A DNA stretch of 64,000 bases, from the NCBI GenBank assembly GCA_965203515.1, contig OZ241907.1, positions 1,511,379-1,575,378 on the forward strand. The letters are read 5' to 3'. Under the pieces are notes generated by a model, which worked only from the letters and a program-made list of their open reading frames with translations, did not search any database and was not told the origin of the DNA. Origin of the DNA: Spirochaetia bacterium. GTDB taxonomy: Bacteria; Spirochaetota; Spirochaetia; SZUA-6; Bin103. The translations under genes were made by a program, and so were the position numbers. This document shows positions 14,344 through 30,935 of the stretch, piece after piece (within the stretch, counting starts at the first letter, position 1; each line of letters opens with the position of its first letter).

Positions 14344-16284
14344 CTACTGTTCGATCCAGTACTGCTCCACGTTGGTGTAGCCGGGGCTCTTGAGGCGCCA
14401 GCTCTGGATCACCTCTTCCGGCACGTTGCGGAAGTTGTTCTTGACGATGGCGACCGCCGGATAGCGGACCGTGCCGATCATCCACACGTTGTCGACGTGC
14501 GACTGGATGATCTGCTTGCCGATGCGGACGCGCTCGTCCGGGTCGGCGGTGGTCTGCATCTGGTCGTACCAGTCCTGCAGCGCCTTGATGTCCGGCGTCG
14601 GCTCCTCGCCTGCCTCACCGTTGGTGGCGTACCAGCGGGCGGCCTCGGGCGCCCAGCCGTGGCTTGCGCCGTTGACCGGCACGTACCAGTTGGGGTCGAT
14701 CGACCAGTGGATGCCGACCGTGAGATAGGCGTTCACCATGAACTCGCCCGAAGCGCGGTTCTCGGTCCAGAGACTGCGGTCGATGACCCTGATCTCCGTG
14801 CGGACGTCGACCGCCTCCCAGTGGTCCTTGAGCAGCTCCAGCATGTCGGCCCCGCCGCCGGCTTCCTCTGCGCCGTAGGAGGATACGATCAGGTGCAGCG
14901 GATCGCCGTCGGGGCGCAGGCGGAAGCCTTCGCCGTCGCGGGCGGTCAGGCCCAGGCCGTCGAGCAGCCGGTTCGCCCCTGCCGGGTCGTAATCGGTGTG
15001 CACCGGCTCCACGAAGAACGGATCGGCCTCTACCGGCACCGCCTGCCACGGGATGGCGACGCCCAGGTAGACCAGATCGCCGATCTCCTGGCGGTCGATC
15101 GCCTTGGACATGGCGATGCGGAAGTCGCGCTCATTGAAGAGTTGGCGCAGCACCGGGTCCTTGTGGGTCAGGTTGAACTTGAACGCGTCCGGAATCGGGT
15201 TGATCCACTGCCGCACCTGGAAGTCGCCCGTCGCCTCGCTCTCCACGAACAGCGTGTAGTTGCCGAAGCTCATGTAGCGCGACTGCATGTCGATCTCGCC
15301 GGCCATCGCCTTGAAGTTGGCGGCGTCGCCGCCCTGCACCACGTCGATCGCCATGCGGTCGATGTACGGGAGCTGCTGGCCGGTCGTGTCGACCTTCCAG
15401 TAGTAGGCGTTGCGCTCGGCGATCTGGCGCGTCACGCCGGTCGCCTCCGACGCCAGCTTCCACGGCCGGATGGAGGGGACGTCCTGGTTGAGGGTCGCGT
15501 TGCCGAGCTGTCCGTGGCGCTGGTGCCACAGCTCGAAACCTTCGGCCTTGGCGGCTTCGGTGAGCTTGTCCTTGTCGCCGTAGCTGGCGTGGAACTGGCT
15601 CAGGTAGTGCTTGGGCGCGAACAGGCCGTCGCCACGGAAGGTGAGCACCTCCTCAAACAGGCCGTTGGTGGCGGCGAAGGAGAACCGGATGGTGTAGTCA
15701 TCGACCTTGGTGAGGGTCGGCGCTTGCCCCGCCACGCGCAGCCACGACGGAAAGACCGGGGTGATCTCCGTGTTCATGTAGACGTCGTCGAACTGATACA
15801 GGATGTCGTCGGCCGTGAACGGCGCGCCGTCCGACCACCGCATGCCCTCGCGCAGATAGAAGGTGAACTCGGTGCCGTCCGCGTTCGCCTCCCAGCGGTG
15901 GGCGATGTTGGCGACCACGGCCGTGCCGTCGCGGGCGCGCCGGATCAGCGGCTCGTAGCCCATCCGGTCGATCAGACGGTTGTCGGTGGGCCGGGTGGCG
16001 ACGCGCCGCCACGTGCCGCCGTACTGTCCCACCTCCTCGGCGGGGGCGACCACGGCCGGCTCCAGCGGCAGACGGTCGGCGACCGGCGGCAGCGAGCCGT
16101 CGGCGACCATGGCCTGCAGGACCGGCGCCTCGGTGAAGCCGGTGATCGTGGCGCCGGTGTCCCGCTCGAAGGCGGCGACGGTGGCCCACTGCCCCAGCGG
16201 GTACCCGACGCCGGCCTGAGCAAGGCCCAGGGCAGCCGCGGCGGTCAACAGGACGGCCGCTAGCGAAATGCGAACGTATGACAT
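14344..16284 (-). CDS. ABC transporter substrate-binding protein, family 5 (Opp/Dpp-like, probably oligosaccharide)
   Basis: Signal peptide 'MSYVRISLAAVLLTAAAALGLAQA'; 'LPPVADRLP', 'YLREGMRWSDGAPFTADD', 'GQQLPYIDR'; RBS AGGAG. Confidence 0.92.
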   Translation of the reverse strand: MSYVRISLAAVLLTAAAALGLAQAGVGYPLGQWATVAAFERDTGATITGFTEAPVLQAMVADGSLPPVADRLPLEPAVVAPAEEVGQYGGTWRRVATRPTDNRLIDRMGYEPLIRRARDGTAVVANIAHRWEANADGTEFTFYLREGMRWSDGAPFTADDILYQFDDVYMNTEITPVFPSWLRVAGQAPTLTKVDDYTIRFSFAATNGLFEEVLTFRGDGLFAPKHYLSQFHASYGDKDKLTEAAKAEGFELWHQRHGQLGNATLNQDVPSIRPWKLASEATGVTRQIAERNAYYWKVDTTGQQLPYIDRMAIDVVQGGDAANFKAMAGEIDMQSRYMSFGNYTLFVESEATGDFQVRQWINPIPDAFKFNLTHKDPVLRQLFNERDFRIAMSKAIDRQEIGDLVYLGVAIPWQAVPVEADPFFVEPVHTDYDPAGANRLLDGLGLTARDGEGFRLRPDGDPLHLIVSSYGAEEAGGGADMLELLKDHWEAVDVRTEIRVIDRSLWTENRASGEFMVNAYLTVGIHWSIDPNWYVPVNGASHGWAPEAARWYATNGEAGEEPTPDIKALQDWYDQMQTTADPDERVRIGKQIIQSHVDNVWMIGTVRYPAVAIVKNNFRNVPEEVIQSWRLKSPGYTNVEQYWIEQ

Positions 16285-16361
16285 GTCAGTAGCTCCTTGG
16301 TGGTTGATTGTTCGTGTCCGCTCCACGTGCCGGCCAGCATACCGTCCGGCCCTTGGGTCGT

Positions 16362-17549
16362 TCAAGTCTTGTACGGGTCGGCGGCGTCGCGCAGGCCGTC
16401 GCCCACGAAGTTGAGCGCCAGCACGGTCAGGACCACCGCGACCCCCGGCAGCAGGAGCCATGGGTTGAGGGCCACCGAGCTGACGTTCTGCGTCTCCTTG
16501 AGCAGCACGCCCCAGCTGATCTCCGGCGGCAGCAGGCCCAGACCCAGGAAGCTCAACGCGGTCTCCGCCAGGATCATTCCGGGGATGCTCAGCGTGATCG
16601 AGACGATGATGTGGCTCATGAACGACGGCAGCAGGTGCCGGCGGATGGTGGTCGACTCTTTCGTCCCGGCCACCAGCGCCGCGGTCACGAAATCCTCCCC
16701 GCGCGCCGCCAGCAGCTTGCCGCGCACCACGCGCGCCAGCCCGGTCCAACTGATCACGGACAGGATGAGGGTGATGGCGAAGTAGCGCTGCACCGGCCCC
16801 CATTCCAGGGGCAGCGCGGCGGCCAGCGCCAGCCACAGCGGGATGGTCGGAAACGATCGGAGCAGCTCGATGACGCGCTGCACCACGGTGTCGGTGGTGC
16901 CCCCGTAGTAACCCGACACGCCTCCCAGGATCAGCCCCAGGACCAGGCCGATCGCCACCCCGATCAGGCCGATCGACAACGAGATGCGCGCCCCGTACAC
17001 GATGCGCGACAGCATGTCCCGGCCCAGACGGTCGGTGCCGAGCAGGAAGATGGTCCCCCCCTCCTCCACGCCGAACAGATGCAGGTCGGTATCGAACAGC
17101 CCCCACCACGTATACGGCTGGCCGCGCTGGAACAGCGTGACGTAGTACTTCTGCGACCGGTCCTCCGTGTAGGTGCGGCGCAGCGAGCGCGGGTCGATCT
17201 GCCGCTCCAGCCGGTACACGAACGGCCGCAGCGAGAACCCGGTCTCACTGTCGTAGAAGTGGATCGGCTGCGGCGGCACGTAGGTGTGGCCGCTGTGCCG
17301 ATGCCGCGGGTCGTAGGGGGCGATCACCTCGCAGAATGCGCCGAGCACGTAGAATATCCCTGCCACGGTGATGCCGGTCAGCGCCAGCTTGTGACGCCGG
17401 AACTTGATCCACATCAGGCGCCACTGCGACGCCAGGTAGAGCCGGTCCTCGGCGGCGTCCGACGGGTCGCGCGCTCGGTCGAATCGGGAGTCGCCTGCGC
17501 CGGTCGATCCTGCGCCGGGGGTGGGAGTGGGCGTCGAAAGCGTGCTCAT
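16362..17549 (-). CDS. ABC transporter permease (DppC/OppC-like)
   Basis: 'LLGTDRLGRDMLSRIVYGARISLSIG', 'EDFVTAALVAG', 'ETALSFLGLG'. Confidence 0.92.
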   Translation of the reverse strand: MSTLSTPTPTPGAGSTGAGDSRFDRARDPSDAAEDRLYLASQWRLMWIKFRRHKLALTGITVAGIFYVLGAFCEVIAPYDPRHRHSGHTYVPPQPIHFYDSETGFSLRPFVYRLERQIDPRSLRRTYTEDRSQKYYVTLFQRGQPYTWWGLFDTDLHLFGVEEGGTIFLLGTDRLGRDMLSRIVYGARISLSIGLIGVAIGLVLGLILGGVSGYYGGTTDTVVQRVIELLRSFPTIPLWLALAAALPLEWGPVQRYFAITLILSVISWTGLARVVRGKLLAARGEDFVTAALVAGTKESTTIRRHLLPSFMSHIIVSITLSIPGMILAETALSFLGLGLLPPEISWGVLLKETQNVSSVALNPWLLLPGVAVVLTVLALNFVGDGLRDAADPYKT

Positions 17550-17566
17550 CCGACCGGCGCCCTGTT

Positions 17567-18562
17567 TCACGCTCCGCGCTGCCCGAAGCGGATGCGCGGA
17601 TCGACCACGGCCAGCAGGATGTCGGACACGAAGGTGCCCGCCACCGTCAGGCAGGCCAGGAACATCACGATGGTCCCCGCCAGGAACATGTCCTGGCTCA
17701 GCAGCGCATTCAGCAGCAGTGGACCGACCGTCGGCAGGCTGAGCACCAACGCGACGACCAGCTCGCCGGAGAGGATGTCCGGCAGCAGCCACGCGACGCT
17801 GGAGACCAGCGGATTGACCGCCAGCCGCACCGGATACTTGAAGAGCAGGCGGGTTTCGCCCAACCCCTTGGCGCGCGCCGTGATCGTGTACTGGCGGCTG
17901 ATCTCGTCGAGCAGGTTGCCGCGCATGATGCGGATGATCGATGCCGTACCGGCCGTACCGACCACGACCACGGGGATGATCAGGTGCTTGAGCAGGTCGA
18001 TCACCTTGCCAAAGCTCCACGGCGCTTCGATGTACTCCTCGGAGAACAGGCCGAGCGCTACGAGGCCGAAATTGAGGTAGACGACGACCATCAGGATGAG
18101 GGCCACCAGGAAATTAGGAGTCGCCAGGCCCATGAAGCCGACCGTGGTGAATAGATGATCGACAGGCGAGTATTGATGGACCGCCGAGTAGATGCCGATC
18201 GGGACCGCCACGACCCAGGTGAAGATCATGGTCCCCAGCGAGAGGATCACCGTGAGCAGCAGCCGCTCCCCGATCAGCGTGCGGACCGGCTTCTCGTACT
18301 CGAACGACTGGCCGAATTCGCCCCGCAGGAAGCCCCACAGCCAGCGCAGGAATTGGTGGATGAAAGATCGGTCCAGGCCGTAGCGCGCCCGCAGCGAGGC
18401 GATCTCATCCTGGTTCACCGACTCACCGCTGGCGGCGAGATTGGCGATGTAGGAGGTCAGATAATCGCCGGGCGGCAGCTGGATGAGAATGAAGGAGACC
18501 ACGGCGATCACGAAGAGCGTGGGGATCAGCAGCAGGATGCGTTGGACGACGTACTGTACCAT
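17567..18562 (-). CDS. ABC transporter permease (DppB/OppB-like)
   Basis: 'YVVQRILLLIPTLF', 'LPPGD', 'QYTITARAKGL', 'DPRIR'. Confidence 0.92.
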   Translation of the reverse strand: MVQYVVQRILLLIPTLFVIAVVSFILIQLPPGDYLTSYIANLAASGESVNQDEIASLRARYGLDRSFIHQFLRWLWGFLRGEFGQSFEYEKPVRTLIGERLLLTVILSLGTMIFTWVVAVPIGIYSAVHQYSPVDHLFTTVGFMGLATPNFLVALILMVVVYLNFGLVALGLFSEEYIEAPWSFGKVIDLLKHLIIPVVVVGTAGTASIIRIMRGNLLDEISRQYTITARAKGLGETRLLFKYPVRLAVNPLVSSVAWLLPDILSGELVVALVLSLPTVGPLLLNALLSQDMFLAGTIVMFLACLTVAGTFVSDILLAVVDPRIRFGQRGA

Positions 18563-18606: not shown

Positions 18607-19453
18607 ATGAGCGCCATCTGTCAAGGTCCCGCCGCCGGCGATCCGGGCCCGCGACGGACCGCCGCCACCGCCGCCGACCTGCGCAGCCACTGGGCCGGCG
18701 CCCGCAACGTGCTGCTGGCCGGCGAGTGCGCGCCGTTCGCCTGGGAACCGCCGCCGGTGGCCGACATCGTCGACCGCCTGCGGCGCGACGACGACGCGCG
18801 CCTGCGCGACCTGTCGCCGGACCGGCCGGACGGCCCCTACTACCGGGAGGACGGCTTCATCGACCAGTTCCGCGCCCTGCCGCTGGAACGGGTCATGGAG
18901 ATGCCGTTCGGGCTCTCCCACTTCTCGCTCACCAACTTCACCAGCCGCGGCGATCTGTTCGCCGGTCTCTGGACGGAGGTGATGGAGCCGTGGCAGGCGT
19001 TTCCTGGCGCGCGCCGGCTTCACCTGGTACCGGTGCTACCCGATCGTCTTCATCAGCGGCGCCGGCGTCCCCGGCCGCTACCACATGGACGTGTCGCACG
19101 TCGTCGCCTGGCAACTGCACGGCACCAAGGTGTTCAACGGCCTGCGCGACCCGTTCCGGTGGGCGCCGCTGGAACAGGCGGTCGATCCGGACTGGCGCGC
19201 GGGCATCGTCAAGCCGGCGGACCTGCGCGACGGGGACGTGCTGAGCTACGTCATGCCGCCCGGCGCCGTCCTCTGGAATCAACCGCTCACCCCGCACTGG
19301 GTCGACGCCGGCATCACGGACGCGGGCGGTGCGGACGAGGTGGCGGCCAGCCTCAACATCTCGCACGGCGGACTCCGGCTCGACGGCGACCTGTCGCCGG
19401 CCGGCCGCGCCCTCGACCGCTACTACCGCCAACACCCGGACCAGCGGTTCTGA
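18607..19453 (+). pseudogene. JmjC/cupin-like 2OG-Fe(II) oxygenase with a +1 frameshift at TTT 19000-19002 (or sequencing error)
   Basis: Removing one T joins '...MEPWQAF' to 'LARAGFTWYRCYPIVFISGAGVPGRYHMDVSHVVAWQLHGTKVF...WNQPLTPHWV' (HxD...H triad). Confidence 0.7.
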
Positions 19454-19487: not shown

Positions 19488-19838
19488 TCATGGCGCCAGC
19501 AACGCGAACACCGTCGTCAGCGAAGTGACGACCACGAAGCCCACGCCGATCATCCACGTCAGCGCGTTGAAGCGCTTGTCGACGTGCCCGATCAGATCCC
19601 CGAACCGCTGGTCGACCGCCTCGAAGCGCCGCTCCATGAACCCGAAGCGCTCGTCCATCAGCACCCGCTGCGCCTTGAGCTCTTCCTCGACCCGAACCAT
19701 CCGCTCCAACAGGGCGGCGGGGACATCGACCGTCTCCGCCCGCGGGACCACGTGGTCGACCAGCTCCCGGAGCCACGGCTTGACGTAGTCTCCGATGCGG
19801 ACGACGTCCTCTTCCTTCAGCATCACCGGCTCTCCCAT
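19488..19838 (-). CDS. Membrane-anchored coiled-coil protein, copy 1 (116 aa; DUF1640/CCDC90/Bdr-like architecture)
   Basis: 'LLERMVRVEEELK', heptads 'RRFEAVD', C-terminal TM 'WMIGVGFVVVTSLTTVFALL'; RBS AGGAGGT. Confidence 0.8.
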   Translation of the reverse strand: MGEPVMLKEEDVVRIGDYVKPWLRELVDHVVPRAETVDVPAALLERMVRVEEELKAQRVLMDERFGFMERRFEAVDQRFGDLIGHVDKRFNALTWMIGVGFVVVTSLTTVFALLAP

Positions 19839-19911
19839 CGGCACCTCCTGTACTATAGCCAATAACGAGCCGGCGGCGCTGGCGCTTCAATCCGTCCGAT
19901 CGATCGGTACG
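19839..19911. repeat. Conserved ~73-bp upstream element, copy A (copy B at 21724-21797)
   Basis: Near-identical to 21724-21797; contains palindrome CCGATCGATCGG at 19896-19907. Confidence 0.9.
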
Positions 19912-19926
19912 AGCGAGGAAGGCGTC

Positions 19927-20748
19927 TCAGTCAGCCGGGGGCTTGGCGGCGCGCAGCGAGAACGACAGCGGGATCGAGCCGTTGCGCTCCGGGAGCCGCC
20001 ACCAGCCGTCGGCGCCGCGCACCATACCCGGCAGCGCCCGATAGTTGCTGAACGGGAACTCGTGGAGGAACTGCAGACGCAGCCCGGCGGCCAGCAGCGC
20101 GTTCACGATCTCCGCCATGCTGTGCTGCCACTCATAGCAGGGGGACGGGATGGTCCCGCCGTCGGTGTAACCAGAACCGCCGCCGTAGAAGGCGCCGGCC
20201 GGATCCGGGAAATAGGGATTGCCGACGCGCAACTCGGAGGAGCCGTCCGGGTCATCGTCATCCGCGAAGATATGGCACAGAGGGTGACCGTCGAATAGAT
20301 AGAACGCGCCGCCGGGCTTCAGGGCGCCGGCCGCGACTTTGGCCCAGGCGGTGAGGTCCGGCAGCCACGCCAGCACGCCGGTCGCGGTATACACGATGTC
20401 GAACTGCTCCTGCAGCACCCCCGGCAGGTCGTACACGTCGCTGCGGATGAACCGCGTGTCCAGCCCCAGCTCCGCGCTCAGGCCGCGCGCCAGGTCGATG
20501 GCGGCGTCGGAGAAATCGACGCCGGTGGCGCGCGCGCCGAGCCGAGTCCACGACATGGTGTCCATACCGAAGTGGCACTGCAGGTGGAGCAGGCTCAATC
20601 CGGCGACCGGGCCGACCTCCTCCCGTTCGATCGCGTTGAGCGAGATGCGACCGGCCTTGAAGCCGGCCACGTCGTAGAACGCGGAGGCCGCGTGCACCGG
20701 CACGCGGTCGTTCCAGTTCCGGCGGTTGACCGCCAAACGCCGGTCCAT
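19927..20748 (-). CDS. Class I SAM-dependent methyltransferase
   Basis: 'LLHLQCHFGMDT', 'ATGVDFS', 'FDIVYT..GVLAWLPDL', 'YLFDGHP', 'EWQHS'. Confidence 0.9.
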   Translation of the reverse strand: MDRRLAVNRRNWNDRVPVHAASAFYDVAGFKAGRISLNAIEREEVGPVAGLSLLHLQCHFGMDTMSWTRLGARATGVDFSDAAIDLARGLSAELGLDTRFIRSDVYDLPGVLQEQFDIVYTATGVLAWLPDLTAWAKVAAGALKPGGAFYLFDGHPLCHIFADDDDPDGSSELRVGNPYFPDPAGAFYGGGSGYTDGGTIPSPCYEWQHSMAEIVNALLAAGLRLQFLHEFPFSNYRALPGMVRGADGWWRLPERNGSIPLSFSLRAAKPPAD

Positions 20749-20787
20749 GGGCTCCCGCGGGGCGGTCTCGTCGAGTCCTCGGTCGAC

Positions 20788-21222
20788 CTACGCGGCGAGC
20801 AACGCGAACACCGTCGTCAGCGAGGTGACGACCACGAAGCCCACGCCGATCATCCACGTCAGCGTATTGAAGCGCTTGTCCACCGTCTCGAACCGCTTGT
20901 CGACCGTCTCGAACCGCTTGTCGATGTGCCCGATCAGATCCTCAAACCGTTTGTTCATATCCTCGAAGCGCTTGTCGACCGCCTCGAAGCGCTTGTCGAC
21001 CGCCTCGAAGCGCCGCTCCATGAACTCGAAGCGCTCGTCCATCAGCACCCGCAGCGCCTTGAGCTCTTCCTCGACCCGAACCATCCGCTCCAACAGGGCG
21101 GCGGGGACATCGACCGTCTCCGCCCGAGGGACCACGTGGTTCACCAGCTCCCGGAGCCACGGCTTGACGTAGTCTCCGATGCGGACGACGTCCTCTTCCC
21201 TCAGCATCACCGGCTCTCCCAT
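20788..21222 (-). CDS. Membrane-anchored coiled-coil protein, copy 2 (144 aa)
   Basis: Paralogue of 19488-19838 with 4 extra heptads (KRFEAVD/KRFEDMN/KRFETVD). Confidence 0.82.
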   Translation of the reverse strand: MGEPVMLREEDVVRIGDYVKPWLRELVNHVVPRAETVDVPAALLERMVRVEEELKALRVLMDERFEFMERRFEAVDKRFEAVDKRFEDMNKRFEDLIGHIDKRFETVDKRFETVDKRFNTLTWMIGVGFVVVTSLTTVFALLAA

Positions 21223-21249
21223 CGGCACCTCCCGCTACTATAGCCAATC

Positions 21250-21723
21250 CTACGAGAGCAACGCGAACACCGTCGTCAGCGAGGTGATGACCACGAAGCC
21301 CACGCCGATCATCCACGTCAGCGTGTTGAAGCGCTTGTCCACCGTCTCGAACCGCTTGTCCACCGTCTCGAACCGCTTGTCGAGGTGCCCGATCAGATCC
21401 TCGAACCGTCTGTTCATATCCTCGAAGCGCTTGTCGACCGCTTCGAAACGCTTGTCGACCGCTTCGAAGCGCTTGTTTATATCCTCGAAGCGCTTGTCGA
21501 CCGCCTCGAATCGCCGCTCCATGAACCCGAAGCGCTCGTCCATCAGCACCCGCAGCGCCTTGAGCTCTTCCTCGACCCGAACCATCCGCTCCAACAGGAC
21601 GGCGGGGACATCGACCGTCTCCGCCCGAGGGACCACGTGGTTCACCATCTCTCGGAGCCACGGCTTGACGTAGTCTCCGATGCGGACGACATCCTCTTCC
21701 TTCAGCATCACCGGCTCTCCCAT
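21250..21723 (-). CDS. Membrane-anchored coiled-coil protein, copy 3 (157 aa)
   Basis: Paralogue with 6 more heptads than copy 1; head-to-tail with copy 2. Confidence 0.82.
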   Translation of the reverse strand: MGEPVMLKEEDVVRIGDYVKPWLREMVNHVVPRAETVDVPAVLLERMVRVEEELKALRVLMDERFGFMERRFEAVDKRFEDINKRFEAVDKRFEAVDKRFEDMNRRFEDLIGHLDKRFETVDKRFETVDKRFNTLTWMIGVGFVVITSLTTVFALLS

Positions 21724-21797
21724 CGGCACCTCCCGCTACTATAGCCGATAACGCGCCGGCGGCGCAGGCGCTTCAATCCGTCCGATCGACCGGTACG
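21724..21797. repeat. Conserved ~74-bp upstream element, copy B
   Basis: Near-identical to 19839-19911; homology stops abruptly after GGTACG. Confidence 0.9.
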
Positions 21798-21827
21798 GTG
21801 TCCGGCGACGATCAAGACGAGAACGCG

Positions 21828-24771
21828 CTACCTCGACCTTGGGGCGGCCAACAGCATGGCGTCGAGCAGGCGCTTCTCGCGGGCGCCGCGCGGATAGAGC
21901 GCCGACAGGGCGTTGGCCAGGCGCAGGAAGTCGGGGCCGCGCTCGTGCTCGGCCTTGAGCAGCGCTCGCAACGCATTGGCGTGGCCGTTCGCCTGCAGCA
22001 GCATGGCGGCGTGCACGCGGTCGAGCGTGGTGGCGGCCACCGCCCGCAGCTCGACGTCGCCGTCCAGGATGCCGGCCCGGCGGCGCTTGCGGCCGCCGGT
22101 GCGGGGCGCGCGGTCCCACTCCGGGAACAGCGAGCGCTGCAGGCCGGCGGCCGGGTCGGCCTCGATCCAGTCGGCGGCGGCGCCGGCGCCGGCGTCGCCA
22201 ACAGGTCCTTGGCGCGCTCGGCCACCGGCAGCAGGCGCACCACGCCCTTGGCCTGGGCGATGACGCGGCCGGTCCAGCGCTCCAGGTCGATGCCCATCGG
22301 CTGCGCGAAGCGGCGCACCACGTCGAACGGCAGGTTGAGGCTTTGTGCCGCGGCCGCTTCGTCCTCCTCGTCGTCTTCCACGCCACGGCCATCGCCGCCG
22401 GCGTCGGTGGTCTGCAGCGTCCAGAGGAACAGCGCCGTGAGGCGCGCGTCTTCTTCCAGCGCGCCGGTCATGCCGTTGCGGGCGCGGGCTTCGGCGGCGC
22501 CGAGGACGGTTTCGAGGGCGGCGCGGCCGACCACCTCCCACACCTTTTCCAGGTACTCCGGCAGGCCGACCGTGCGCCCGGCGGCGGTCTCGACCGCGCG
22601 GTAGCGGCTGTAGAGTTCGAGCGCCGGGCCGATGCAGGCGAACACCAGGTCGGCGCCGCGCACGCCTTCGCCCTGCAGGCGCGCCATCCACTCGGCGACG
22701 CGCACCGGCAGCGCGTGCAGCACGTCGGCCCAATCGCCGACCGGCGCGTCGGCCGGCCGCGGCCGGCAGATCAGGTGAATGCTGGTGGCCAGCGCGGCGG
22801 AATCGCGCGCCCGCAGTCGGGTGCCCAGTTCGGTGGCGATCGGCCAGGAGCCGGTGATGGTCCAGCCGCCGCGGATCATGCCGACCAGCAGCGCCTCCCA
22901 GCCTTCGGTGGTCTTGTGCGCGAAGACGACGGAGCCGACGCCGTGTTCGGCGAGCATGCGGCGTCCCTCGGCGAACGCTCTTGCCATCGTCTCCTCGAAC
23001 CACCGGCGGTCCTTCGGGCGGCCATCCTGCCGCTTGGTCTCGTCCTGCACCGCCTCGCGTGTCTTGGGAGACAAGCGATTATCTGCGTCGAACGGGTCCC
23101 GCAGGAGTGGATGTCCGGGCAGCGTGCGCTTGAGCCAGACGAGGAAGAAGTCGGAGAGGTCGGCATACGGAACGGCGTCATAGTAGGGAGGATCGGTAAA
23201 CCAGACCGAGGCGGACTCGTCGGGGAGAGGATGGTCGGTAGCGTCCGCCGGCTGAGTCTGGCCCCGACCGCGGCTGACCGATGCATCGACGACATCGGCG
23301 ATAAGTTCGTATCCGCTTTGCCAGTTGCCCGGCGCTTCGGCTGTTATCACGACCTCCGCAAAGTCCCACACCATGGGGATCGCCTGGCGACCGAACGTAT
23401 GCTCTTCTCAGCCATGGCATTCCATCGAGTACACGTCATGTTGCTCATGGATACGCGGTTGAATGCGCAGGCTAATATCGAGGCGATCCCGGCTGCGCTG
23501 CCGCTCCGAACGACGTCGAGTAAGTTGACCAGCGCCATTTTCTGGCGAGCGGAGAAGAGGTCGGCCCAGCGGAGCATGCCGTAGCGCTGCACGCGGAACC
23601 CCAGCGTGCCGATCGGCGGCAGCGGTTCGTCCGGCACTGGGCACAGTCCCTGCTTGCCGCCGCGCTCCCACTCGCCCAGCAGCGCCGCCAGCCGCTCCTG
23701 CGCCCGCCGCACCGCCGCGTAGTCCGCCTCGCCCGCCGGCCGGTAGTGCCGCCCCGGCGCATCCGCCCGCAGCGTCACCACCGCCGTCAGCCGCGCGCCG
23801 CCGGTCCGCCGTCCGTCCGCGTCGAACACCGCATCGGCGCCGCCGCGCTGCGCCGCAAGCTGCGCCCGCACCCGCTCCGGCGCCAGCACCGCGCCGCAGC
23901 ACAAGCACGCCGCCCGCGCCCGCGCCACCGTACCGCCCGGCACCTCCGCGTCCGCCGCCGGCGTGAACACCTCGAACCGCACCGCCGGCGGCCCCTCCGG
24001 CCGGCGCTCCACCCGATAGCGCAGCGCCCGCTTGCGCTTCGGCTTGCGGCACAGCCAGAACGAGCGCATCAGCGGCAGCTCCGCCCCGCACTGCGGCGCC
24101 TCGCAGCGCACCGTGCGCGCCCACAGGTAGGCGATCGGCGTCTCCCTGTCGGGGTCGGCCGGGTACAGGTCGGCCAACTCCTGCGCCGCCGCGTCCCGTA
24201 TCTCGCCGCCGGCCCGGCGCAGTTCAGCGGCCAGCCCCGGACCGTGGCGGGGGATGTCCTCCAGCATCACCTTGAGGATCAGGCACGCCACCGGGTTCAG
24301 GTCGCTGGCGAACGCCTCGCAGCCGAGGCGTAGCGCCTCCAGCGGGATGGAGCCGCCGCCGGCGAACGGATCGACCACCAACGGCGCCTCCTCGCCATGC
24401 GCGGCCCGCACCAGTTCGCGGCCGACGCGCAGGCAGGTCGAGTGCGCCGCCAGGTCCCAGTTGGCGAATTCGCCGATGAACCGGAGCAGCGCGGCGCGCA
24501 GCTCGGCGTCATCCGCCGGCGGCTGCCGCACCGCGCCCAGGATGGCGCGCGCCTGCCGCTTGAAGGCGTCGGGGCAGTGCGGGTCGAGCGGATCGGGCAG
24601 CAGCAGGGCCAGCAGCACGGCGCGCGACGAGGCGAGCGGGCGCCGCGCCCACCAGAGATGGAGCGTGGACGGATGCCCGTGGCGGATCGACTTCTCCCGC
24701 GCCGCGTGCCGGGACACCTCGGCGATCGGAAAGTCGACCTCGGCCAGCCGCCGGCACGCGCGGGGAATCAC
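21828..24771 (-). pseudogene. DUF1156-domain adenine-specific DNA methyltransferase with two frameshifts (~23400-23408 and ~22200)
   Basis: 'EVDFPIAEVSRHAAREKSIRHGHPSTLHLWWARRPLA', 'DPFAGGGSIP', Zn-ribbon 'RCEAPQC'; frame switch to 'HTFGRQAIPMVWDFAE', 'TDPPYYDAVPYADLSDFF'; second switch to 'GDAGAGAAADW...LANALSALYP'. Confidence 0.85.
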
Positions 24772-24930
24772 GATACGACGATCGCCGCTGCGATTACCGT
24801 TGATCGCCTATATCGAGAACGTAAAGCGTCCTGAAAATCCATCGTAAGCACTCCTTGGCATATGACGTCGCGGCCAATGAGTACCTGGAAAGGTCTTCAT
24901 GCTGCATGGGGCGGATTAGCCGGACGGGGA

Positions 24931-24996
24931 CGGGGCATCCTCGCCATGCGCGGCCCGCATCAGTTCACGGCCGGCGCGCGGGTAAGGTCGGGTGCG
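24931..24996 (-). pseudogene. Decayed second fragment of a DUF1156 methylase gene
   Basis: Aligns by eye to 24382-24446 (CCTCGCCATGCGCGGCCCGCA shared); reads 'GRELMRAAHGEDAP' vs 'GRELVRAAHGEEAP'. Confidence 0.7.
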
Positions 24997-26986: not shown

Positions 26987-29305
26987 ATGGCGATGCCGCG
27001 ATTGACCGCCGCCATCGGTCCCGACCACACCGATCGGCAGATACTGCGCTTCCACCGCGTCCGCGTCGAGCGTCAGGAGGTGCTGTACGGCGACGCCGAC
27101 CCGCAGCTCTGCCGGCACGGAGCGGGGCTGGTGCTGTGCGGCCGCGGCGGATCGCTGGCGACCAGCGATGACGGGGGCGAGAGCTGGTCGCAGCTTCCCG
27201 ACCTGGCGGCGCCGGAGGCGGCGGGCGGCGCGGTGCTGGCGCTGGCCGCGCGCGCGGACGGGACCCTGGCGGCGGCGATCGAGCGGCGCGGCGCCCTGCT
27301 GATCCTGTGCGCCGACGACGCGGCCGGGCCGTGGCGGCCGGCCGCCGCGATCGACGCCGGGTTGGCCCGGCATGGGTTGACCGGCGCCGAGGGGCCGGCC
27401 GGGCCGCCGACCGCTCGCCTGGCGCCGCTGGCCGGCGGCCCGCTGCTGCTCTGTCTGCCGGGCCGCATCCTCCGTTCGACGGACGCCGCCGCGTGGGAGA
27501 CGGTGGCCGAGCCGCCGGCCGACTGGGAGCCGCTGCATCCGCTGCAGCTCCGCTCCGGCCGGCTGATCGCGCCGGTGGCGGACGGAGCCGGCGCGGTGGC
27601 GCTGGCCGAGTCGACCGACGGCGGGGCCGATTGGGACGTGCCGGACCGATTCGCGCCGCTCGCCGCCGAGTTGACGGAGCTTCCCGACGGCCGGCTGGTG
27701 CTGAGCTACGGCATGCCGCACTTCCCCTACGGCGCCCGCGCCGTGATCGGCGCCGCCGGCCTCGGCGCGGGGGACGGCGGAGCGGGGAACGGCGGCGCCG
27801 TCGCCTGGGGAGACGAGGTCTACGTGCTCGGCCTCAGCCGCTACGCCATCCGCGCAAAGGCGCGCCCGGTGCTGGCCGGGCCGGGACCGGTGGCCGGTCC
27901 GGGACCGCTGGCCGGGCCGGGACCGGTGCTGGCCGGGCCGGGAACCGGCGCCGCGGCGGCGGTGACCGGCGACGGCGTGATCGTCTCCGCCTACCACCGC
28001 GGCGCGGCGCTCGGTTCGTACGCGCCGACCATCTACGGTCCGGGGATGGACGAATGGGGGCGCAGGCCGGCGATCGGCGTGGTGCGCTGGACTCCGGAGG
28101 GCCTGGACCGGCCGCCGCTGGTCTACCCCAACCTGTGGACGGAGCGGACCGACGCGCGCGGCTACCTGGACAACGGCATGGTGCGCATGCGCCCCGACGA
28201 CCGCTACGAGGGCGGTGACTACGTCGAAAACTTCGAGATGGTGGTCTACCGCCGCGCGGCGGCCGAACAGCGCTATTTTCCGGGAGCCGGCGCCAAGGGC
28301 GTGGTCGTCTGCCGCCACCCTGACGGCAGCTTGGTCTACACCAGCCGCGACCGCCGCATCCACCGCTCCACCGACGAGGGCCGCACCTGGAGCCTGGTGG
28401 CCGAAGTCCCCCTGCCCGGTCGGCAGCCGTCGGTGTTCGGGTTCGGCGTGACCGACGCCGGCACCTTGCTGCTCTCCTACGCCGTGCTGGTCGACCCGGC
28501 GGACCCGGCGCGCGGCACGCACAACACGCACGAGCCGCGCGTGGCGCGCAGCGACGACGGCGGACGGACCTGGACCGACGCCGAGCTGGCGCCCCGGCCG
28601 ACGCGCTACTGCGGCCTGGGCGACGGCAGCCGCATCGTGCAGCTCGCCGGCGGCGCCGTGATCGCCGGCGGAGCCGTGATCGCCTGCTGCAGCAACGCCT
28701 GGAACGATCCGGCGCGGCAGGCCGGCTACGAAGGCGACGTCCTGCTCCGCTCGCACGACGACGGCCGGACCTGGGGCGACTGGACGGTGCTGCCGCCCGG
28801 CTGCTGCGAGTCGAACCTGCTGGAGCTGCCGTCCGGCGAGCTGCTCTGCGCGACGCGCTACCAGCGCGAATACCTGACCGTCGACCTCTTCGACGCGCCG
28901 GCCGGGCAGGGCGGCGGCCGCCCGACGTGGCCCGCGCCTTCCCGCAACCGGGCCGGGCCGGGCCGCTTCAAGAACGAGGCGATCATGTTCTCCACCGACG
29001 GCGGCTACGACTGGACCACCCCGTTTCTGGTCACCCGCCTGCACATGTGCTCCGCGGACATCGTGCGCCTGCCGGACGGCCGCGTCGTGCTCACCTACGA
29101 CCACAAGGACGCGGTCGGCGGCCCGCGCGCCCTGGTCAGCCCCGACGGCGGGCGCACCTGGGGCGCCGAGCACTACATCCTCTCCTACCACCCCATGGAC
29201 GCCCGCACCAGCTCGGTGACGCTCCGCGACGGCCGCGTGCTCACCCTGTGGGCGGGAGCCCGCGACCAGGGCATCCACGCCACCACCTGGTCGCCCGAGG
29301 ACTGA
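26987..29305 (+). CDS. Tandem sialidase-like/BNR Asp-box protein (two propeller modules)
   Basis: Asp-boxes 'TSDDGGESW', 'STDGGADW', 'STDEGRTW', 'SDDGGRTW', 'SHDDGRTW', 'STDGGYDW', 'SPDGGRTW'. Confidence 0.78.
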   Translation: MAMPRLTAAIGPDHTDRQILRFHRVRVERQEVLYGDADPQLCRHGAGLVLCGRGGSLATSDDGGESWSQLPDLAAPEAAGGAVLALAARADGTLAAAIERRGALLILCADDAAGPWRPAAAIDAGLARHGLTGAEGPAGPPTARLAPLAGGPLLLCLPGRILRSTDAAAWETVAEPPADWEPLHPLQLRSGRLIAPVADGAGAVALAESTDGGADWDVPDRFAPLAAELTELPDGRLVLSYGMPHFPYGARAVIGAAGLGAGDGGAGNGGAVAWGDEVYVLGLSRYAIRAKARPVLAGPGPVAGPGPLAGPGPVLAGPGTGAAAAVTGDGVIVSAYHRGAALGSYAPTIYGPGMDEWGRRPAIGVVRWTPEGLDRPPLVYPNLWTERTDARGYLDNGMVRMRPDDRYEGGDYVENFEMVVYRRAAAEQRYFPGAGAKGVVVCRHPDGSLVYTSRDRRIHRSTDEGRTWSLVAEVPLPGRQPSVFGFGVTDAGTLLLSYAVLVDPADPARGTHNTHEPRVARSDDGGRTWTDAELAPRPTRYCGLGDGSRIVQLAGGAVIAGGAVIACCSNAWNDPARQAGYEGDVLLRSHDDGRTWGDWTVLPPGCCESNLLELPSGELLCATRYQREYLTVDLFDAPAGQGGGRPTWPAPSRNRAGPGRFKNEAIMFSTDGGYDWTTPFLVTRLHMCSADIVRLPDGRVVLTYDHKDAVGGPRALVSPDGGRTWGAEHYILSYHPMDARTSSVTLRDGRVLTLWAGARDQGIHATTWSPED
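27866..27943 (+). repeat. Imperfect in-frame 18/21-bp tandem repeat encoding (V/L)AGPGP x4
   Basis: 'PVLAGPGPVAGPGPLAGPGPVLAGPGT' inside the Asp-box protein. Confidence 0.85.
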
Positions 29306-29321
29306 GGCGCGAAGCCTGCGG

Positions 29322-30935
29322 ATGCCCGCCTCGACGCTCCCCGACCCCAGACCGCCGCGGGACTGGGAGCTGATCTACGTCAGCGATCCGTCCAACGTCA
29401 CCAACTATGACTTCGATCCCGGCGACGCCCGGCCCCTGATCACCCGGCATCCCGCCGCGCCGGCGGAGCTCGCCGCCTTCATCGACCACGCCGCCGCCAG
29501 CGACGCCGACGCGTTCGTGCAGGAGGTCTACAACGCCGGCTGGATCATGTACTTCCGCTCCGATCGCTTCGAGTACGACGCGCGCCCGCAGCACCGGCGG
29601 TTCCTGCCGATGATGGACGACGGCGTCATGCCGCTGCAGGTGATGCTGGAGCGATCCCGCACGCGCGGCATGCGCTTCCTGGCCGGCTTCCGGGTCAACG
29701 ACAACCACGGCGCCCCCGATCAGGGCGGCATGTTCCTGCACCGGAACCCGCAGTGGAAGCTCACCGACGCGCCGCCCGGCGGCGCCTTCCTGCCCGGCAA
29801 CCGGATGGACTATTCGGTCGCCGAGGTGCGCGACTACCTGTTCGAGGTCGTCGCCGAGGTGGTGTCGCGGTTCGACGTCGACGGCGTGCTCCTCACCTTC
29901 CGCGACGGGCTCTACTTCCCCGCCCCGAACGGCGATCGGCGCCTTGCCCGCGAGCGGCAGCCGTTGATGACCGGTCTGCTCGAGCGGCTGCGCGCCCTGC
30001 TCGACGAGCGGGGCCGGGCGCGCGGGCGGCGGCTGGAACTGGGCGCGCTGGTGCCGCAGACCCTGGAGGACTGCCATGCCGTGGGGCTCGACGCGCCGGC
30101 CTGGATCGGCGGCGGGCTGGTCGACTTCGTGTCGCCCATGGACTCGGCGTTCACGGACTTCAACGCCGCCTACGACGAGTTCGCCGCGCTCACCGCCGGC
30201 ACGCCGTGCCGGCTCTACCCCGGCGTCCAGCCCTACTGCTCGTCGTATGAGAGCTTCGGCCCGCCGGCGACGCCGGAGAACTACCGGGCCCTGGCCCACG
30301 CCCTGCGCCGCCAGGGCGCCGACGGCATGTCGGTCTACAACTTCCAGAAGCACTGGGGCGGGTTCCGTTCCGGCCGGCGCGGCGCGGAGACCGGCTATCC
30401 GGCGGCGTTCCGCTATCTGCGCGAGGCGCGCGACCTGCAGCGGGTCGCCGACGGCGTCCGCCACTACACCTACCGCTCCCTGTGGGGCGGGTACCGCGGC
30501 ATCAGCCCGTCCGGCGCCAACGTGTGCGGGACGATGCGGGACCGGAAGCTGGTGCTGCCGCGCGCGCCGGGCAATCCGTCGGCGAGCTACCGGTTCCGGT
30601 TGTTCGAGGAGGTCGAACGGACCGCCGCGGCCACGCTGTTCGCCCGCGCCGTCGGCCTGGGGCCGGCCGACCGGATCGCCGTCCGCCTCAACGGCGCCGC
30701 CGTTCCCGACGCGCGGCTCCGCCGCATCCACCACCGCGAAGGCCGGCCCGAGAACGGCGGCCGCGCGCTGCCGCCGCACACCACCTGCGTCATCGATCTG
30801 ACCCCGGACCTGGTCGTTGCCGGCGACAACGAGCTTGCGGTCACGCTGCTGTTCTCCGGCATGGCCGCGCTGAGCGCGGCCGACGGCCAGGCTATCGTCA
30901 TCGACGAGGTCGACGTGACGATCGTCCCGGCCTGA
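29322..30935 (+). CDS. GHL10-like (family 10 glycosyl hydrolase-like) protein
   Basis: 'RFLAGFRVNDNH', 'RMDYSVAEVRDYLFEVVAEVVSRFDVDGVLLTFR', 'LDAPAWIGGGLVDFV'. Confidence 0.65.
   Translation: MPASTLPDPRPPRDWELIYVSDPSNVTNYDFDPGDARPLITRHPAAPAELAAFIDHAAASDADAFVQEVYNAGWIMYFRSDRFEYDARPQHRRFLPMMDDGVMPLQVMLERSRTRGMRFLAGFRVNDNHGAPDQGGMFLHRNPQWKLTDAPPGGAFLPGNRMDYSVAEVRDYLFEVVAEVVSRFDVDGVLLTFRDGLYFPAPNGDRRLARERQPLMTGLLERLRALLDERGRARGRRLELGALVPQTLEDCHAVGLDAPAWIGGGLVDFVSPMDSAFTDFNAAYDEFAALTAGTPCRLYPGVQPYCSSYESFGPPATPENYRALAHALRRQGADGMSVYNFQKHWGGFRSGRRGAETGYPAAFRYLREARDLQRVADGVRHYTYRSLWGGYRGISPSGANVCGTMRDRKLVLPRAPGNPSASYRFRLFEEVERTAAATLFARAVGLGPADRIAVRLNGAAVPDARLRRIHHREGRPENGGRALPPHTTCVIDLTPDLVVAGDNELAVTLLFSGMAALSAADGQAIVIDEVDVTIVPA

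Follow-up and report, generated by a model that had tools for sequence, protein, structure and literature searches.

The Bdr (Borrelia direct repeat, PFam80) proteins of Borrelia are spirochaete proteins of ~100–270 aa that contain short coiled-coil units of 11 residues. They are associated with the inner membrane, no function has been assigned to them, and bdrT carries ~9 repeats in B31 and ~6 in N40 (PMC3303823, PMC10016077). The DUF1640/CCDC90-like proteins (MCUR1, CCDC90B and yeast Put6/Put7; PF07798) hold a rod of fixed sequence on the matrix or cytoplasmic side of the membrane, and a scaffold role has been proposed for MCUR1; the start of their stalk is marked by a beta-layer neck of the form [aliphatic]-A-T-K-[polar]-[DE] (PMC4786415). 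In the phage families XhlA (PF10779), DUF2951 and the holin-like PHROG families, all of ~70–100 aa, a coiled coil runs straight into a C-terminal transmembrane (TM) segment from near a Trp. The present analysis concerns three paralogous genes, henceforth referred to as c1, c2 and c3, in a 64,000-nucleotide stretch of a Spirochaetia bacterium genome (assembly GCA_965203515.1, contig OZ241907.1); this whole stretch, on a contig of ~4.1 Mb, is referred to as the window.

We propose, with a probability of roughly 0.6, that c1–c3 are a locally amplified cluster of a large undescribed family of small tail-anchored coiled-coil proteins, which would act as spacers or scaffolds whose reach is set by the number of stalk units. 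No publication or curated model covering the family was found. The family is thus new and unnamed, while its general kind, the tail-anchored repeat coiled coil, is known, and the closest counterpart in behaviour is Bdr.

Stalks that differ by whole heptads

The three genes were taken from the open reading frame (ORF) listing and its translations, and the 21-bp arrays within c2 and c3 were located by Tandem Repeats Finder at period 21:

19488–19838, minus strand: c1 (copy 1), 116 aa
20788–21222, minus strand: c2 (copy 2), 144 aa
20869–20924, 20934–20975 and 20961–21013: 21-bp tandem arrays in c2, the last with 2.5 perfect copies (100% matches)
21250–21723, minus strand: c3 (copy 3), 157 aa
21328–21381 and 21420–21514: 21-bp tandem arrays in c3

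Outside the indels the proteins are 92–93% identical and the DNA ~96% identical. The indels themselves are exact multiples of 21 bp, such that c2 corresponds to c1 with four additional heptads and c3 to c1 with six additional heptads minus one C-terminal residue. The original prediction, which was made from the sequence before this analysis and described three near-identical genes of 116, 144 and 157 aa with +4 and +6 heptads relative to the first, was accurate in these respects. Each gene carries GGAGG 5 nt 5' of its ATG, and the motif VVRIGDYVKPWLRE, the segment ERMVRVEEELK and the heptads KRFEAVD, KRFEDMN and KRFETVD are present in the set. Every copy contains a single 11-residue unit, which reads QRFGDLIGHVD in c1, KRFEDLIGHID in c2 and RRFEDLIGHLD in c3. 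The shortest protein, c1, consists of a head helix, a loop, ERMVRVEEELK, an RFGFMER unit, one heptad, one hendecad and the C-terminal anchor; the unit strings of c2 and c3, with 7 for a heptad and E for the 11-residue unit, are 7777E77 and 777777E77.

The conserved N-terminal part, the ERMVRVEEELK segment, the variable coiled-coil stalk and the C-terminal anchor that had been predicted are all present in c1–c3. The N-terminal part comprises ~70 residues, beginning with an amphipathic helix that contains an invariant Y-x-K-P-W-L-R and is followed by a loop. This part also includes the start of the long helix, which bears the invariant LLERMVRVEEEL...LMDERF. An AlphaFold2 monomer model of c2, built with 44 homologues (mean predicted local distance difference test score, pLDDT, of 81), shows a helix at residues 9–30, a low-confidence loop at 31–40 and one unbroken helix at 41–143 that runs into the anchor. 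The anchor is a hydrophobic segment of 21–22 residues at the extreme C-terminus, with a Kyte-Doolittle mean of 2.24 over the last 19 residues; K/R residues flank it on the N-terminal side and merely 2–3 residues lie beyond it. The anchor region of the family reads RF-N-T-L-T-W-M-I-G-V-G-F, and the distance from the anchor Trp to the C-terminus is 21–22 residues in all 122 family sequences examined.

No N-terminal hydrophobic segment or signal peptide was detected in c1–c3 by hydropathy. Since a signal peptide is absent and the anchor is C-terminal with K/R on its N-terminal side, the positive-inside rule predicts a tail-anchored protein whose rod lies in the cytoplasm, the same side as in the DUF1640/CCDC90-like proteins. 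A surface role in contact with a host or phage for the rulers that were originally suggested does not fit the predicted cytoplasmic rod, and such a role is unlikely. From LLERM to the anchor the helix measures 52, 80 and 94 residues in c1, c2 and c3, which at 0.15 nm per residue corresponds to computed rod lengths of ~8, 12 and 14 nm.

The periodicity of the stalk was evaluated in 120 homologues. Among ~1005 spacings from one R-F to the next, 721 were 7 residues and 269 were 11, and the remainder were mostly 18 or 14, representing units in which R-F is mutated. Heptads follow the consensus R-F-E-A-V-D-K, in which F takes position a, V/M d, R g and D e; hendecads read R-F-E-[DE]-L-I-[GA]-[HQ]-x-[DN]-K and place F, L, I and their ninth residue at a, d, e and h. 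Cores of the a/d type in heptads and the a/d/e/h type in hendecads are those of canonical left-handed and slightly right-handed coiled coils, respectively, as in the non-heptad coiled coils of Lupas and co-workers (PMC4786415). Judging from these assignments, the R at g and the D at e can pair between helices. Paralogues that alternate 7 and 11 residues place 18 residues over 5 turns and are nearly straight. What distinguishes the present family from the hendecad stalks of Lupas and co-workers is that the 7- and 11-residue units are interchangeable cassettes with a common R-F start, whose number and order vary between paralogues and strains; this clean cassette design is an unusual feature of the family.

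In its general layout of N-terminal part, coiled-coil stalk and C-terminal anchor the family resembles DUF1640, and the head-neck-stalk-anchor layout of c1–c3 had been matched to the trimeric coiled coils of DUF1640/CCDC90, the family of MCUR1 and CCDC90B. The helix at 41–143 and the hydrophobic 19-residue segment that it enters provide the stalk and C-terminal TM anchor of such a protein. Several Chromatiaceae relatives additionally bear the UniRef label 'DUF1640 domain-containing protein', and one of these matches PF07798 weakly over its stalk (14.4 bits, E 0.035). These 14.4 bits are, however, the best PF07798 score of the DUF1640-labelled Chromatiaceae relatives and lie far below the gathering score of 33.5. 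No Pfam family was matched by c1 at E<=1, PF07798 was not among the best 25 matches listed for c2 and c3, and when 40 members were searched at E<=0.01 it did not rank within the 25 families hit most often. Chains of MCUR1 or CCDC90B did not appear among the best PDB profile matches, and a regular expression for the beta-layer neck motif was found in 0 of the 122 family sequences. The model of c2, a monomer model only, shows a single helix and a loop and not a globular head, and a Foldseek comparison of this model with the PDB gave no match, as expected for a single long helix. Moreover, the DUF1640 stalk is a fixed sequence whereas that of the window family is a variable tandem array. As the family has no hidden Markov model (HMM) match at threshold and lacks the beta-layer neck, and as the model of c2 lacks a globular head, membership in DUF1640/CCDC90 is very improbable.

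Sub-threshold matches of c1–c3 and 40–44 members to Pfam, NCBIfam, PADLOC and PDB sequences, the top ones being KxDL, DUF7310, Spectrin, SMC and haemagglutinin HA2, were dismissed as compositional coiled-coil noise.

Extent of the family and variation between strains

A search with c3 returned more than 5000 proteins of 104–222 aa, all derived from metagenomes or metagenome-assembled genomes (MAGs) and none with a curated domain. Among species-representative genomes, 382 relatives were found, mostly in Spirochaetia MAGs and in several dispersed copies per genome, and paralogues within single genomes span ~100–320 aa. Other carriers are Chromatiaceae, Desulfobacterota and a few further groups. 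The Spirochaetia members come mainly from sponge or marine metagenomes, as do the sequencing runs that contain the locus. An exhaustive search with the head only gave 44 clusters at 50% identity, in which all proteins were <=211 aa and the head was always N-terminal. Because the head occurs solely in this short architecture, no domain fusion hints at a function.

Stalk composition varies widely across the family. At least 13 unit architectures were counted among proteins with near-identical heads, and in six species orthologues that occupy one conserved chromosomal position among sugar-metabolism genes differ in length. The 11-residue insert, originally described as fixed, is so within the window; across the family the description fails, as the number of hendecads ranges from 0 to >10 and many paralogues alternate 7 and 11 or consist of pure hendecads.

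The same pattern was observed outside the spirochaetes. Thiocystis violacea DSM 208 (L073 579–2511) carries three near-identical members of 119, 140 and 126 aa; transposase-like ORFs lie between them, and a RayT/IS200-like gene comes after them. These copies differ by whole KRFEQV[ED] heptads, so the pattern of heptad steps arose independently in a gammaproteobacterium. A plasmid of Vibrio alfacsensis (L087 2435–2737) encodes a 100-aa protein with three KRFEQVD heptads, a C-terminal anchor and a different head; the plasmid is mobilizable and the gene has anti-restriction, zincin-like peptidase and topoisomerase genes around it, and similar genes occur on other Vibrio plasmids.

An origin of the copies in misassembly was ruled out, since four assemblies made independently from other samples contain the entire cluster, with flanks 98–99% identical, and two other contigs also encode the exact c2 protein. 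For the head, the ratio of non-synonymous to synonymous substitution (dN/dS) has a median of 0.14 across species, which indicates purifying selection. Recurrence in independent assemblies together with this ratio shows that the genes were not created by assembly error and are not ORFs that arose by chance in a GC-rich genome.

The cluster stretch is 93–95% identical between strains compared to 98–99% for the flanks. Locus orders, given as protein lengths in aa with MT for the methyltransferase gene, are as follows:

Window and L002: 157-144-MT(-116)
L001: 157-136-144-MT-116
L083: 157-136-158-MT-116
L084 (short-read scaffold): 104-144-MT-116

One whole gene is thus present or absent (3 vs 4 copies), one slot holds a protein of either 144 or 158 aa, two RFEAVDK units apart, and one unit is swapped between strains from RFEAVDK to RFEDMNK. 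The repeat number is therefore not invariant across related genomes. The 116-aa copy, which has the fewest repeats, is invariant, with the same units in four assemblies. Slippage or unequal recombination between near-identical repeats or paralogues is the likely source, judging from these sequences, of the changes in length and copy number between strains. To this extent the recombination or slippage that had been predicted is borne out, namely between strains, as 3 vs 4 genes and 144 vs 158 aa.

A stricter version of the prediction, a contingency locus in which units change reversibly at high frequency to produce surface rulers for host or phage contact, is quite unlikely. Perfect 21-bp tandem repeats within genes, and numbers of units and genes that differ among close strains with near-identical flanks, are what such a locus would contain. 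However, the 21- and 33-bp units are in frame, so that on/off phase switching does not result, and the predicted topology is cytoplasmic and not surface. The c1, 157-aa and 144-aa alleles also recur unchanged in several independent samples, which argues for moderate and not very high mutation rates, and the analogous bdr repeats are reported to be stable in culture (PMC3303823).

Runs containing the locus were represented by Logan short-word contigs, which are pieces of 80–500 nt broken inside the repeats. In sponge metagenome runs, short contigs from the repeats and head (window 19600–21560) were observed at 5–15 times the word depth of the methyltransferase gene, which fits many family copies per community.

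Relation to Bdr and a proposed role

The likeness to the Bdr repeat proteins that had been noted is apt as an analogy. In both groups the paralogues are multicopy and vary in repeat number among themselves and from strain to strain, and the two have in common the phylum and a layout of a conserved N-terminal part, a central array of 7- or 11-residue units and an anchor at the extreme C-terminus. The window family, like Bdr, consists of small proteins built of short coiled-coil units. It differs in mixing heptads and hendecads with an invariant R-F, and in being unlinked to plasmid partition loci or cp32 prophages.

Whether this likeness reflects descent was considered in the form that the family members are divergent true homologues of Borrelia Bdr, with Bdr as the plasmid- or prophage-borne branch of an old spirochaete family sharing an inner-membrane job. 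A tblastn search of plasmids with c3 found proteins on plasmids of Borrelia sp. RT1S/RT5S (E 1e-7) with nearly the heptad of the window family, KQFDTVD/RFEAVDKQF. These proteins, from reptile-associated Borrelia, are Bdr relatives, as 60 Borreliella records match them with E values down to 9e-11 and the anchor motif is held in common. By hhalign, the family matched RT1S with a probability of 97% and an 8-sequence Bdr alignment with 88% (E 3e-6). All of this similarity, however, lies in coiled-coil repeats that are prone to convergence, and the profile alignment covers 45 columns at 9% identity; canonical BdrT alone gave an hhalign probability of 0.2%. The head is not shared. Neither is the Bdr anchor motif [LM]RKD[LF]..SNR...P: in the Bdr alignment the N, R and P of [LM]RKD[LF]..[SG]NR plus the Pro of the TM helix are invariant, and this motif was not encountered in the window family. 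The family genes are also chromosomal and not beside partition genes; the window genes lie on the ~4.1-Mb contig, and no partition genes recur across 80 loci, so a plasmid or cp32 setting does not apply. Homology to Bdr is accordingly possible on the sequence evidence but doubtful.

The RT1S/RT5S proteins (L086 1312–1890; L091, L092), annotated as "hypothetical" and encoded beside RepL on linear plasmids, are divergent Bdr members in which the KQFDTVD/RFEAVDKQF heptads replace the classic KID hendecads.

For the spacer or scaffold that we favour, the following arrangement may be envisaged. The F and V residues of the heptads (a/d) and the F, L, I and residue 9 of the hendecads (a/d/e/h) would form the core; given this core and the pairing of R with D, the stalks should associate as parallel, in-register homo-oligomers. 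In such an oligomer the anchors would lie next to one another in the cytoplasmic membrane, the rod would extend into the cytoplasm, and the invariant head (Y-x-K-P-W-L-R and LLERMVRVEEEL) would be held ~8, 12 and 14 nm from the membrane in c1, c2 and c3. The comparison of strains shows that stalk length and gene number change as whole 21-bp (and 33-bp) units, and entire genes, are gained or lost. Our best guess at the function is that the proteins serve as membrane-anchored spacers or scaffolds and that the number of units determines their reach; this guess draws on the parallel with scaffolds of the MCUR1 type and with the role suspected for Bdr.

Several points weigh against this proposal. 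Topology, oligomeric state and function are all derived from sequence, and the structure model is monomeric and cannot show a bundle. Neighbourhood clustering across 80 loci revealed no conserved neighbour or partner. Compared to L001, two genes neighbouring the cluster are frameshifted in the window, so small indel errors or recent decay occur close by; c1–c3, however, are intact. The 104-aa allele of L084, on a short-read scaffold, could be a collapsed repeat. Finally, repetitive DNA could produce the length variation as a neutral side effect, without any functional tuning.

A further and speculative possibility, which we regard as rather unlikely, combines the spacer with descent. The family would be the chromosomal ancestor-type, in free-living or symbiotic bacteria, of Borrelia Bdr, and its members would be cytoplasmic membrane-anchored rulers tuned cassette by cassette (7 left-handed, 11 right-handed, 7+11 straight), with every genome maintaining a series of graded lengths that places a common partner, bound by the invariant YxKPWLR/ERMVRVEEEL head, at set distances from the membrane. 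If this were true, culturable carriers such as Thiocystis or Halomonas would offer the first genetic handle on Bdr-type function, and a real Bdr link would provide a tractable way into the 25-year-old question of the role of Bdr.

The family matters on other grounds as well. It is abundant, with thousands of metagenome sequences, and is also found in culturable purple sulfur bacteria and halomonads, such as Thiocystis violacea DSM 208, Thiocystis violascens, Allochromatium palmeri and Halomonas llamarensis. It represents a natural experiment in coiled-coil design, in which two periodicities with one R-F start are shuffled while the head and anchor are nearly invariant, and the cassette series gives rods from ~3 to >30 nm. 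Even if the lengths are not functionally tuned, the locus still illustrates clearly how minisatellites evolve in frame and genes are amplified locally in the genome of a symbiont.

Setting of the cluster

The cluster is neighboured by an ABC transporter, the methyltransferase gene and a DUF1156 gene. Features between and upstream of the three genes are as follows (SAM, S-adenosylmethionine):

19851–19911, minus strand: 61-nt leader 5' of c1, duplicated 5' of c3
19927–20748, minus strand: class I SAM-dependent methyltransferase, between c2 and c1
21737–21797, minus strand: second copy of the 61-nt leader, 5' of c3, 93% identical

The methyltransferase gene separates c1 from c2, so that c1–c3 do not form a strictly contiguous set. 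This gene is kept at the same place in all related strains, and it is not found at other loci of the family. No further family copy was detected in the 64-kb window by a family HMM search.

The c1 leader contains the palindrome CCGATCGATCGG at 19896–19907 and a TATAGT just 5' of the Shine-Dalgarno sequence. A second copy of the 12-nt palindrome lies at 21782–21793 in the c3 leader with one mismatch, and it occurs nowhere else in the window. The palindrome could be a putative operator; two matches with one mismatch allowed were equalled in 28 of 100 shuffles, so the chance of coincidence is not negligible. A scan for sigma-70 promoter and terminator consensus sequences found nothing.

Directly upstream of c3, at 21812–24771 (minus strand), lies a DUF1156/HmaB-like DNA methylase. 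It is split into three frames compared to the intact 995-aa gene of L001, with a protein identity of just 80–85%, and is probably a decaying or replaced orphan, or else the differences are assembly indels. Just beyond the methylase, L001 carries a 2.8-kb insertion (L001 3175–5953) that encodes a tyrosine integrase, a PEGA-domain protein and a 90-aa ORF. The corresponding site in the window is 24787–24994, and a 53-nt direct repeat surrounds the junction (24381–24433 and 24930–24982, 89% identical). In close relatives (L085 6001–12303; L023 9989–12712) a 186-aa paralogue, frameshifted in L023, is situated between SNF2-like/UvrD-like helicases and a DUF1156 plus DUF499 pair, which together form an Hma-like defence cluster (helicase-methylase-ATPase).

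A phage-derived protein was also considered, a membrane perturber of the XhlA/holin-like or DUF2951-like kind that mobile DNA would carry and that would act in lysis, superinfection exclusion or defence. The layout of a coiled coil, a W and a C-terminal TM segment is that of XhlA, and weak PHROG matches were obtained to phrog_6701 (4e-9, function unassigned) and to the holin phrog_689 (~5e-3, including c1). Vibrio and Thiocystis relatives match 'hemolysin' phrogs, and Chromatiaceae relatives match the XhlA and DUF2951 Pfam families weakly; such weak profile matches cover the stalk and the anchor. The locus lies in a variable island beside the orphan HmaB-like methylase, with an integrase in L001, another paralogue lies within the Hma-like defence cluster, and relatives with the stalk and anchor occur on Vibrio and Borrelia plasmids. 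On the other hand, a scan of 2.9 million viral contigs yielded no relative, and no lysis or phage structural genes are nearby. The scores of the phage-family HMMs are far under their thresholds and fall in coiled-coil regions; the listed matches of the window proteins do not include XhlA (PF10779), and c1 had no Pfam match at all. The conserved head of the window family was not found in the phage families. That six species keep the gene at one chromosomal position among sugar-metabolism genes, and that genomes have several dispersed copies, also speaks against a phage origin, which is considered highly unlikely.

Adjacency to DUF1156/HmaB was seen at 3 loci, and as these are confined to close relatives of the window it was not taken as a functional link. 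With no neighbour conserved over the 80 loci and no viral relative, the defence-island setting is regarded as a trait of the variable regions of this lineage, and the tail-anchored spacer or scaffold remains the preferred explanation for c1–c3.

Elsewhere in the window, a gene without assigned function at 18607–19453 (plus strand; 281 aa in L001) has one frameshift near 19001 and is otherwise 99% identical. A BNR/sialidase-like repeat protein and a GHL10 glycosyl-hydrolase-like gene are encoded at 26987–30935 (plus strand). Together with the peptide ABC transporter at 14344–18562, the BNR and GHL10 genes are typical of a glycan- or peptide-scavenging symbiont.

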